A DNA stretch of 59,911 bases, counting the filler, from Dugesia japonica (taxonomy: Eukaryota): the NCBI GenBank assembly GCA_001938525.1. It is 5 parts of 5 records of this genome, joined end to end, with 100 filler letters (N's around TTAATTAATTAA, not from the genome) between each part and the next. Parts side by side here need not be neighbours in the genome. Positions count along the whole stretch, not along the records: positions 49,455 to 59,911 come from MQRL01618465.1; 4 more parts are not named here. The stretch is one strand, 5' to 3'. The notes below the pieces were generated by a model, which did no database searches, was not told the origin of the DNA, and saw only the letters and a list, made by a program, of their open reading frames with translations. Shown piece by piece: positions 52,755-55,380 of this stretch (positions are counted from its first letter, which is position 1; each line of letters opens with the position of its first letter). The position numbers were made by a program, and so were the translations under genes.

Positions 52755-52930
52755 TAAAAATCTAATATTTTCAAACCGGTTATTACTTTTTGGCGCAGAA
52801 TGAAAACTATTTACACATAAAGGATTGAATACTATTAAATAGAGACTTGGAAATAATTCGGGTTCATATATACAGTATGATTTTTCAGCCACTTTCTGTA
52901 AATTTATTGTCAACTGTAAAAACTTTATTT
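52755..52930 (-). pseudogene. TBP-like gene copy 3 (C-terminal repeat, divergent)
   Basis: TINLQKVAEKSYCIYEPELFPSLYLIVFNPLCVNSFHS/..KVITGLK. Confidence 0.8.
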
Positions 52931-52994
52931 GTAAAACATTAAATATAACAACAAAACTTTCTAAAAAAGAAAAGTAAAATTAACAATTAAACAC

Positions 52995-53387
52995 ATTTAA
53001 TAATTTTCATACAGGAAATTTGATTCAATTTTTAATTTTGTAGCCTTGAAGTAAAGGTTTTATTTTAACTATGCCATCCTTTGATGGAATACATGGATTT
53101 CCAGATTTGTCATACCTATTGAAATCCTTTGCTCGAAAATAAAATGATCTCTTCATTTGAATGTTTGTTTCCATTTCTTTATAAATTTTACTCAATCCAT
53201 ATTTTATGATTTGTAAATTTTCATCTGGCAAATGCGATATATATATATTATTTATGTTCTTTGAGAAAGGCCATTTCATAACCATGATATGTAACCGGCG
53301 GATTGAAATGTTCTTAAATAAAAAAATTAATGAAATTGTAATACAATAGCAAAAGAAAACCTTCATTGTTTCGTATTTTCTCACCAA
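52995..53387 (-). pseudogene. Homologue of the 29863-30297 protein (possible OB-fold SSB)
   Basis: NIYISHLPDENLQII...VKIKPLLQGYKIKN*IKFPV*KLLNV. Confidence 0.45.
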
Positions 53388-53876
53388 ATATTTCTTTATA
53401 TTTTAATTTTTTCAGAATTTGTTTCATTCAGTTTTGTTCATCAAATTGATAAGAAAACTCAAGCATACCTTTTAATCATCTCATTAGTTTGAAAATGAAT
53501 TCGACTTTGATTCCACCTTCAGTAAATATTTGTAATTCTTCAATCGTTTCTTCAATTAGTTTTCGTTTATCACCATCAACAGAAATGTATTGAGAATTAT
53601 TCATCATCAAAAATGTATAATAAAATGATTTAGGTCACTTACTTACACAGTATTTTATTTAATCAGTTATATTGACTTAATAAAACCACATTTTAAATAA
53701 TTAAATAATTTATTGCATCTGCATTGCACCTGCATCGCATTGCAACTGAATTGAATCTTAGTTTTCAATGTNTTATTTTTTTATGATAACTATATTTATT
53801 ATTATCATTTTATGTTACAATTATATTTAAAAATAAATATTTTTTATGAGACAATTACAAAACAATATTTATACAG

Positions 53877-54844
53877 CTACATGAAATTGATGTTGTTGTT
53901 GTTATTGTTGATTTCATTCATCATCTCCTTTATTTTTGTCATCATCATATGCATTCTGTAAGCCACAATTTCTTGTTGAGTCTCATGACTGTTATTCTCT
54001 ATTACCTTTGTCGGTAATGCTTTCTGGTACTGATCAAATAGAGTCGTCATTGGGGTTTGTTCATTAATTGACAGTTCTGAAAATTTGTGTGTTGTTGTTT
54101 TGACCAGGTGAGGTAGATCAATTGTTTCTAGATCCATCACAACAAATGATTGATGATTGCTATGATGACGAAGGCTCCTTATTGCATTGTTCCACTCTTG
54201 TTGTGCTCTAAAACCTGCTCCCATTGTTGTAACTAATTGAGCTAAATAGTTAAAATTTGATACCAGACTTTCCTTTTTTGTAGGTTTCATTGATGGATAT
54301 TTTTCCATTGACTCATTAAATGAAATAAATTAATTTGGACTGTTTTTATCGGACATTTATCTCGTAACTGCACCAGACAAGTGTTTTCAACTAGTGGTGT
54401 CATAAGAGTATTGTCAAATTCCTTAATAAAATTTATTGGACAACTTCCTATTGATTGTTTGAAGTGACATGTTGATACTGGATTCATATAATTATAAACT
54501 GAATTCAATGTTGGATGTAGCATCATTACGTTCTTTATGTGAATTTCTATCGAGTTCACAGCGTCCAACTTTGCAAGTGTTGGAGTTGAAGAACCTATCT
54601 CTTGCTGCTGGACTGATACCTCATCCATTAATATTACTGGTGTTGCTTGACTGGATGCTTCTCTTGTTAAATCATCATTATTATCATCATCATCATCATT
54701 AGGGATGTTGTTAAATCGTTCGATTCTATCCCGAACGTTTTTAGATAAGGATCCAAAAAATTGTTTGGTCCACTCTGCCAGCTCATACTCTTACGAAAGA
54801 CTTCGCGGACTCATTTAAACTCCCCTCGTTGTCATATTGTTCAT
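53877..54844 (-). pseudogene. Unknown ~300-aa element-borne gene (frameshifted)
   Basis: Overlapping ORFs 53877-54308 and 54287-54628 plus an upstream acidic DDDDD segment. Confidence 0.5.
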
Positions 54845-55080
54845 ATTAATCTTTTATTGATAAACNCCGAAAATAATTAATTTTAGCTGTCTTATATTTA
54901 ACATGTTTAAATACCACAACGTAATTTATTTAGCAAATGAATTTCAGATAAAACATGTTTTGATACCACAACGTAATATATTTTATATCTGCATAACTAA
55001 ATTATGATATATATTCATTATTTACGAAAGCAATGAAAAAAAGACAATAGATGCAAATACATTTATTTATCACTCTGTTT

Positions 55081-55380
55081 TTACAACCAATCTACACAGT
55101 ACTGTCCACATAAAAGTATAAATGGATTTTGATCCATTTTATTATTGTAAGCAACCAGCTACTAGCATTCTTTTCAACTTTTTCACAAGAACACTAGGAT
55201 AATATATTCCAAGAGGATCATATACATTGATTCGATTAGGTCGAATATACATAGCTATCCAATGTTCACCAGACAGGTTTAACAATTGAGTATTTTTAAC
55301 AAATCATCCATTATATAAATAGTCAGGCTGCTTGTCTAATGCATAATATTGTTTCAAAGATGGAAGTCTTTATTATAGCA
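55081..55380 (-). pseudogene. Adenain-type (Polinton) cysteine protease
   Basis: YYALD..P...NTQ..LSGEHWIAMYI....VYDPLG...DQNP...LCGQYC: catalytic H, D, Q, C in order; stops and frameshift. Confidence 0.85.

Follow-up and report, generated by a model that had tools for sequence, protein, structure and literature searches.

Polintons, also treated as Mavericks or adintoviruses, are the closest described relatives of the elements discussed here. In the portions drawn on, the account by Starrett et al. (2021; PMC8502044; 10.1101/697771) gives the genes that our loci share with them: pPolB, an rve integrase with a chromodomain, an A32-type ATPase, adenain, PLA2 and capsid-like genes. A "TBP" label stands in a figure legend of the non-animal-dataset section of that paper (PMC8502044), with the element unspecified and no discussion in the accompanying text; the same portions of text describe no widespread animal TBP family, no SSB neighbour and no late box (PMC8502044; 10.1101/697771). 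Literature searches brought up no publication that describes a TBP family of Polintons, and the terms TBP and TATA are missing from the text of PMC11071308, 10.64898/2026.06.19.733378, PMC10748475, PMC11131425, PMC8097293 and the supplement of PMC8502044; figures, some supplements and Repbase could name the family.

Viral proteins with a TBP fold are known from other systems. In the parts of PMC4893493 and PMC12529657 used here, the vTBPs of beta- and gammaherpesviruses (EBV BcRF1, KSHV ORF24, HCMV UL87; PMC4893493) resemble our family in having the TBP fold, in serving viruses that lack an RNA polymerase of their own and in being associated with a variant TATA at late genes. They are long (577 aa in BcRF1), belong to a Pol II-binding complex of six proteins and read TATT (PMC4893493, PMC12529657), and a model of ORF24 is called incompatible with TFIIB (PMC12529657). 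The Polinton family, in contrast, has about 150 aa, keeps the TFIIB-contacting Glu pair and goes with a box that differs at the seventh base; partner families of the herpesvirus type were not found among the locus ORFs, and the long Pol II-binding extension is also lacking. By analogy, the Polinton TBP may work like the herpesvirus switch without being a member of that group. With cellular TBP (PF00352) and giant-virus TBP, as covered by the sections of PMC7221094 used here, the family has in common a saddle of two lobes, the presence of three intercalating Phe and the acidic pair of the C-lobe; it differs in sequence (22–31% identity), in a cut first stirrup and first-lobe helix, and in five changed residues of the DNA face. 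According to the same sections, a TFIIB of viral origin is the partner of most viral TBPs (PMC7221094). The loci examined here lack a viral TFIIB, which counts against reading the family as a late-gene switch; they also lack a viral RNA polymerase.

The window, i.e. the whole stretch of 59,911 nucleotides of Dugesia japonica DNA that was analysed, is made of scaffolds chained by a fixed spacer, 12 bases between two runs of 44 N. It is AT-rich and holds retrotransposon relics and an intronless, intact-looking UFC1 gene (43050–43559, +; Pfam E 3e-85). A MITE-like interspersed repeat of 90–170 bp recurs at 7157, 19925, 22266, 35701, 37677 and 56726 and is palindromic at 22341–22441. The last scaffold, MQRL01618465.1 (positions 49,455 to 59,911), has the GIY-YIG end of a Penelope-like retroelement at 51790–52329 (+) which, with 51662–51796, shows an inverted 136-bp repeat. 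Its part from 52555 to 59911 is gap-free apart from single Ns and carries a TBP-like fragment on the minus strand (Table 1).

The fragment scores 20.8 bits against Pfam TBP, where the cut-off is 22.9, and 41.3 bits against positions 79–121 of the 156-position family profile. In a second frame it continues weakly (2.9 bits) to 52709, and only profile positions 79–151 are recovered, so that this copy does not have two lobes; the roughly 65 bp between it and the end of the SSB-like gene hold no first lobe. Both acidic C-lobe residues of the TFIIB pair and the family-type Asn of the DNA face are present, as is a family-specific Pro-x-Cys-Val-Asn segment that is absent from cellular TBP. The copy, which has no first lobe, is very likely dead. 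An earlier note on this DNA had described it as a TBP-like half on a separate scaffold, much more divergent than the others, and this is borne out: over 35–37 codons it shares 46% identity with copies 1 and 2, compared with 72–76% protein identity between these two. Nucleotide identities by codon position are 54/66–70/49–59% for the fragment against copies 1 and 2, and about 85/85–88/80% for copy 1 against copy 2. This is the comparison of protein with nucleotide divergence suggested in that note; three copies alone cannot show age.

Table 1. Features of the TBP-bearing stretches in the window
Feature	Position	Strand	Remarks
TBP-like copy 1 with both lobes; C-terminus damaged	21323..21748	-	other scaffold; profile match
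Broken major-capsid-like gene (cluster C9)	26223..26906	-	labelled by size and position; no Pfam match
Small core-protein-like gene (cluster C4), copy-2 element	27579..27797	-	cluster profile match
YATAAAC[AG] box	27829..27836	-	39 bp ahead of C4-like start
Broken packaging ATPase, copy-2 element	28039..28626	-	family member matches Pox_A32
YATAAAC[AG] box	28043..28050	-	39 bp ahead of ATG of short basic ORF
TBP-like copy 2, both lobes, frameshifted	28743..29181	+	other scaffold; profile match
SSB-like (C3) remnant, copy-2 element	29881..30120	-	15.0–15.3 bits, top C3 score in the window
C-terminal lobe of compact Polinton-type TBP	52709..52919	-	profile matches; frameshift near 52805; first lobe absent
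SSB-like gene, broken; putative member of cluster C3	52980..53634	-	body 53001–53380; N-terminal motif 53242–53313 in another frame
Coding remnant without family match, 150 codons	53877..54329	-	stop-free frame; present in sister copies
Coding remnant without family match, 167 codons, acidic patch	54287..54790	-	stop-free frame
Broken adenain-type cysteine protease	55063..55366	-	50.5 + 19.6 bits in two frames; stops, one frameshift
Second adenain remnant	56096..56300	+	back to back with the first, ~730 bp apart; ~70% DNA identity in aligned parts

Upstream of the TBP fragment lie, all co-oriented with it on one gap-free contig, the SSB-like gene, the coding remnants and the adenain gene, an arrangement proposed in the earlier note and confirmed here for what are now broken genes. 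The SSB-like gene matches the C3 profile weakly in two colinear frames, the body at 10.8 bits and the N-terminal motif at 8.6; the best scores of ten shuffled windows were 2.6–8.7 and the reversed window gave 4.3, so that the body outscores all ten shuffled controls whereas the motif by itself does not. A 52-codon ORF (53479–53634) shares the frame of the motif and is likely an N-terminal extension of the gene. No match to this SSB-like ORF was found in Pfam or PHROGs, no direct homologue and no usable Atlas match. The two coding remnants are likely one frameshifted gene; their stop-free frames run to 167 and 150 codons, and a single frame of 150 arose in 0/500 shuffles. For the 150-codon ORF, Pfam, PHROGs and the Atlas gave no match and the viral contigs no locus. 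The adenain remnant matches cluster C14, a member of which hits Pfam Peptidase_C5 at E 3.7e-5; though broken, it supplies the adenain-type protease typical of Polintons/Mavericks (adintoviruses). On its 5´ side, 55385–55517 contains short G-rich direct repeats, and behind 55345 the contigs of sister copies run out in loose ends, so that another repeat may have replaced the start of the gene. The second adenain remnant, which was missing from the earlier note, is heavily covered by sister contigs.

The stretch is multi-copy and interspersed in the genome: 2307 and 2011 contigs align to it, most of them 80–95% alike, and all 30 bins are covered. Contigs from two DNA runs connect 54650 with 55119 inside adenain, i.e. 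the coding remnant with the protease. Because none of the aligned D. japonica contigs bridges TBP to adenain, the origin of the whole from a single element is one that we infer. The fragment copy itself has stops and frameshifts across its TBP, SSB-like and adenain genes. In the fragment from 52555 to 59911 no polymerase, integrase, ATPase, capsid gene or termini were detected, and a terminus-like motif or flanking inverted repeat was not found at this copy. RNA reads on 52555–56500 are under 95% alike in 333/335 (X8) and 32/33 cases (X11), and on 52640–53420 in 55/56 (X9) and 5/5 (X7), with none at 99% in either interval. As nearly all are below 95%, these reads, which fall on both strands, come from sister copies and are uninformative on the expression of the fragment copy.

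Copies 1 and 2 lie on other scaffolds, and the element of copy 2 (26223–32452) has both an ATPase and a capsid-like gene. Its TBP (+) faces the SSB-like remnant (-) and is head-to-head with the ATPase, whereas in the fragment copy SSB and TBP follow each other in tandem. The difference in gene order pointed out earlier is therefore real, and varied order is common across the loci described below. Adenain was not detected in 26223–32452, where the scaffold begins inside the capsid-like gene and the position of adenain is not comparable. On the scaffold of copy 1, a further C4 core-protein-like remnant was seen at 25084–25338 (-).

Copy 1 led to five close relatives, and the profile built from these matches 1476 clusters at E<=0.001, among them cellular TBPs; at 1e-10 there are 204, and at 1e-30 there are 25. 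Top matches are mostly of 145–175 aa, and some matches are short. Members are 31–53% identical among themselves, except for one close pair at 88%, and all 50 aligned members have two lobes. An AlphaFold model of member P0004 (pLDDT 96.9) gave 44 PDB matches at E<=0.001, those listed all being TBP chains (best E 1.8e-10, TM 0.6–0.72), and the family is accordingly predicted to form the two-lobe TBP saddle. One family-like protein, P0091, apparently has three lobes. When the 50 members are aligned to a plant-type TBP, the intercalating Phe is kept in 49/50, 50/50 and 50/50 at three sites, while the fourth, in the first stirrup, is gapped in 47/50; the first-lobe helix is mostly deleted. The Glu pair is retained in 48/50 at each site; its contact with TFIIB and the role of the first lobe are taken from the relevant parts of PMC7221094. 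Five changes on the DNA face are near-invariant (V→N in 50/50, V→R in 49/50, T→M in 50/50, N→S in 49/50 and L→N in 50/50). Four Phe and a canonical DNA face, as in cellular TBP, are thus not what the family has, and the five fixed changes suggest a new sequence target.

The genomic surroundings of the family were taken from the best 80 of 175 metagenome relatives (27–47% GC) retrieved with the 50-member alignment; one giant-virus-type contig with a canonical TBP is excluded from all locus counts. A Polinton hallmark gene occurs in 39/80 loci and in 26/36 of those of 3 kb or more, leaving 10/36 of this length without one. By gene, the hallmarks are ATPase 27, integrase 17, penton-like 14, capsid-like 11, pPolB 8 and adenain 8. 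Pfam confirms the ATPase, integrase, pPolB, adenain and PLA2 clusters beside the family TBP; the capsid-like and penton-like genes, which have no Pfam match, we take to be such from size and position. A TFIIB or RNA polymerase family was found neither among 84 further locus ORFs nor among the cluster representatives. The viral contigs gave no relative for the first TBP alignment, the ATPase alignment or the capsid-like alignment. A search of genome contigs gave two matches, both in bacterial bins, one a canonical eukaryotic TBP and the other a Polinton-like fragment (L083, with TBP-like, ATPase and C4 genes) that is probably misbinned; no prokaryotic family was seen in this search. Cluster C1, present in 25 loci (e.g. 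L074:2924–3544), is a conserved gene of 150–200 aa, often beside TBP and tandemly duplicated in some loci; it has no Pfam or PHROGs match and, we presume, the look of a DEDD nuclease. Taken together, 204 clusters, identities of 31–53% and 80 loci among Polinton genes uphold the earlier proposal that the TBP-like gene is an old gene of the lineage and no one-off capture. Neighbour order varies across the 80 loci, and TBP and adenain occur together in 8 of them, so the possibility raised earlier that the two are unlinked elsewhere does not hold.

An SSB-like gene is present in 42/80 loci, and in 13 loci C3 stands in tandem ahead of TBP, the same layout as in the fragment copy. The C3 model (pLDDT 91) matches 5odk (Z 8.4, rmsd 2.9, 103 aligned), 4klk (8.3), 1je5 (8.0) and 8hw5 (6.9), with the next rows at 5.6, and by this comparison is predicted to have the gp2.5-type OB fold of the Enc34 SSB, DUF2815 and T7 gp2.5. 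C3 is therefore predicted to be SSB-like and a putative ssDNA binder. It differs from the gp2.5/Enc34-type proteins in its length of about 115 aa, its 8–10% identity and its lack of an acidic tail, since members stop once the final strand is complete; the model also matches many giant-virus proteins, ASFV CP312R being among the systems compared. Because the fragment's neighbour matches C3, if weakly, along its length, and the C3 model resembles Enc34, DUF2815 and T7 gp2.5, the SSB-like label given in the earlier note is probably right. Profile-profile links among the four SSB-like clusters are weak (C3–C20 81%, C3–C13 36%, C17 none) and C3 alone was folded, so only for C3 does the assignment stand on tested grounds. 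In several loci with C10 and C3 (L004:1502–2135, L023, L028, L010, L018 and others), the end of C10 has a GT-type donor context and a pyrimidine-rich AG precedes the start of C3; judged by these signals, splicing may join C10 and C3 as the two exons of a single SSB gene.

A YATAAAC[AG] box distinguishes the genes of these loci. It was picked by eye, post hoc, on the very loci used for counting, and counts refer to the 100 bp ahead of the first ATG with near-duplicates removed. The box precedes ATPase in 23/25, C4 in 15/18, capsid-like in 9/10, penton-like in 8/13, adenain in 3/5, C1 in 16/23 and PLA2 genes in 9/12 cases, compared with 0/62 for TBP, 3/19 for C3 and 1/3 for pPolB. Pooled, this post hoc motif gives a variant TATA ahead of 84/105 late-type genes vs 8/111 upstream regions of TBP, SSB, C10 and pPolB, and it also precedes 12/16 integrase genes, mostly farther off (53–96 bp), and 7/38 SSB-like genes. 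On the opposite strand of late genes it never occurs, and shuffles expect at most 1 per class. Its position is mostly 32–50 bp ahead of the ATG, where it often overlaps the 3´ end of the preceding ORF. A canonical TATA precedes 23/62 TBP genes. Searches of viral contigs with ATPase and capsid-like alignments found no control set of TBP-less Polintons for the frequency of the box, and the fragment copy has no exact box in 52555–56500. Cluster C25 (L026, L031, L038, L041, L044) encodes a secreted-type leucine-rich-repeat cargo and may be late, since the box precedes it in 5/5 loci.

We favour, at a probability of about 0.6, the reading that the fragment stretch is a decayed and deleted Polinton copy of the Maverick/adintovirus type, and that the compact TBP-fold protein of its family is likely a viral late-gene switch. 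A switch resembling that of herpesviruses is likely because the box stands ahead of virion genes and not of TBP, although binding to it is putative. Ordinary promoters would first let host Pol II transcribe the genes for TBP, SSB and polymerase. After that, the viral TBP would bind YATAAAC[AG] through its altered DNA-reading face, recruit host TFIIB via the retained Glu pair and escape regulators whose grip depends on the first-lobe surface that it has lost, and packaging and capsid genes would thereby be switched on. One extension is that a large clade of animal Polintons has a one-protein early-to-late switch, made of a 150-residue TBP, the box and host TFIIB and Pol II and ignoring TBP regulators, and that SSB and TBP form an early module of ancient origin which has been passed around among several families residing in the same genome; we consider the chances for and against this evenly balanced.

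A different role for the protein is conceivable, if doubtful. The seventh base of the box presumably corresponds to C(-25) of the TATA variant in 1qn3. As far as the record for that structure goes, wild-type TBP was crystallised on the C(-25) variant (1qn3), so host TBP may read the box, leaving the element's protein as a decoy for host TFIIB or as a DNA-bending helper of replication or packaging together with SSB. Retention of the TFIIB-contact Glu pair alongside loss of one intercalating Phe would suit such a role, as would the frequent SSB-like neighbour (42/80 loci, with only C3 folded). The five DNA-face positions fixed to new residues suggest instead a new target, and the absence of the box ahead of the TBP gene (0/62), together with its TATA-like spacing, likewise speaks for the late-gene switch. 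A second question is whether several separate insertions make up the stretch as a mosaic, with the SSB-TBP pair and adenain derived from different elements. Two adenain remnants back to back at 730 bp, the undetected termini, polymerase, integrase, ATPase and capsid genes, the lack of a contig across the whole stretch and the 167- and 150-codon ORFs, which have no family and match none of 734 locus ORFs, all fit this. It is nevertheless unlikely, given that one gap-free contig carries all four genes in the same orientation, and given the joining of coding ORF and adenain by contigs from two DNA runs, sisters covering all 30 bins, and adenain just upstream of TBP in 8/80 loci.

Two further explanations concern the half TBP itself. 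That it is a natural single-lobe protein working as a dimer could be proposed from the presence of one lobe only and from the short database matches; the piece is, however, frameshifted, all 50 aligned members are two-lobed, and sister reads or contigs leave the fragment sequence behind 52912 (31 reads in X8, 17 reads in X9, 3 contigs in X3), which fits loss or replacement of the first lobe in this copy and makes a single-lobe dimer highly improbable. Barely credible is the possibility, named in the earlier note as one that would overturn its interpretation, of a host TBP pseudogene landed by chance among transposon relics. The weak Pfam TBP match agrees with it, and an AU test on 39 residues (50/103 rows) rejects neither a grouping with copies 1 and 2 (p 0.47) nor one with eukaryotic TBP (p 0.17; lnL 25.8 lower), so that 39 columns do not fix the fragment's place in the tree, and the second subfamily of the earlier note, judged on these residues, is a candidate. 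Against it, FastTree nests the multi-copy fragment inside the family, past the long branch that leads away from the TBPs of cells and giant viruses, and apart from the copy-1/2 group, and alignment scores are about twice as high with the best and named family members (95–120) as with ten cellular, archaeal or other viral-type TBPs (42–64). On account of these scores and of family-specific residues such as the Pro-x-Cys-Val-Asn segment, we regard a host pseudogene as excluded.

In conclusion, the fragment is very likely a dead piece of a real, apparently undescribed variant of viral TBP, and the value of the locus lies in adding a further, distant lineage to a genome in which another family with a TBP is already present. 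If the proposed one-protein switch is real, no smaller system for late transcription in a virus is known, and its origin would be independent of that in herpesviruses. The family would offer a natural TBP of altered specificity, and the box would mark late genes in unannotated elements. At stake is whether virion genes of Polintons are still expressed on a timed schedule as in a virus; if the elements have a TBP of their own and a box to go with it, this could be tested using a single small protein and a site of 8 bases.
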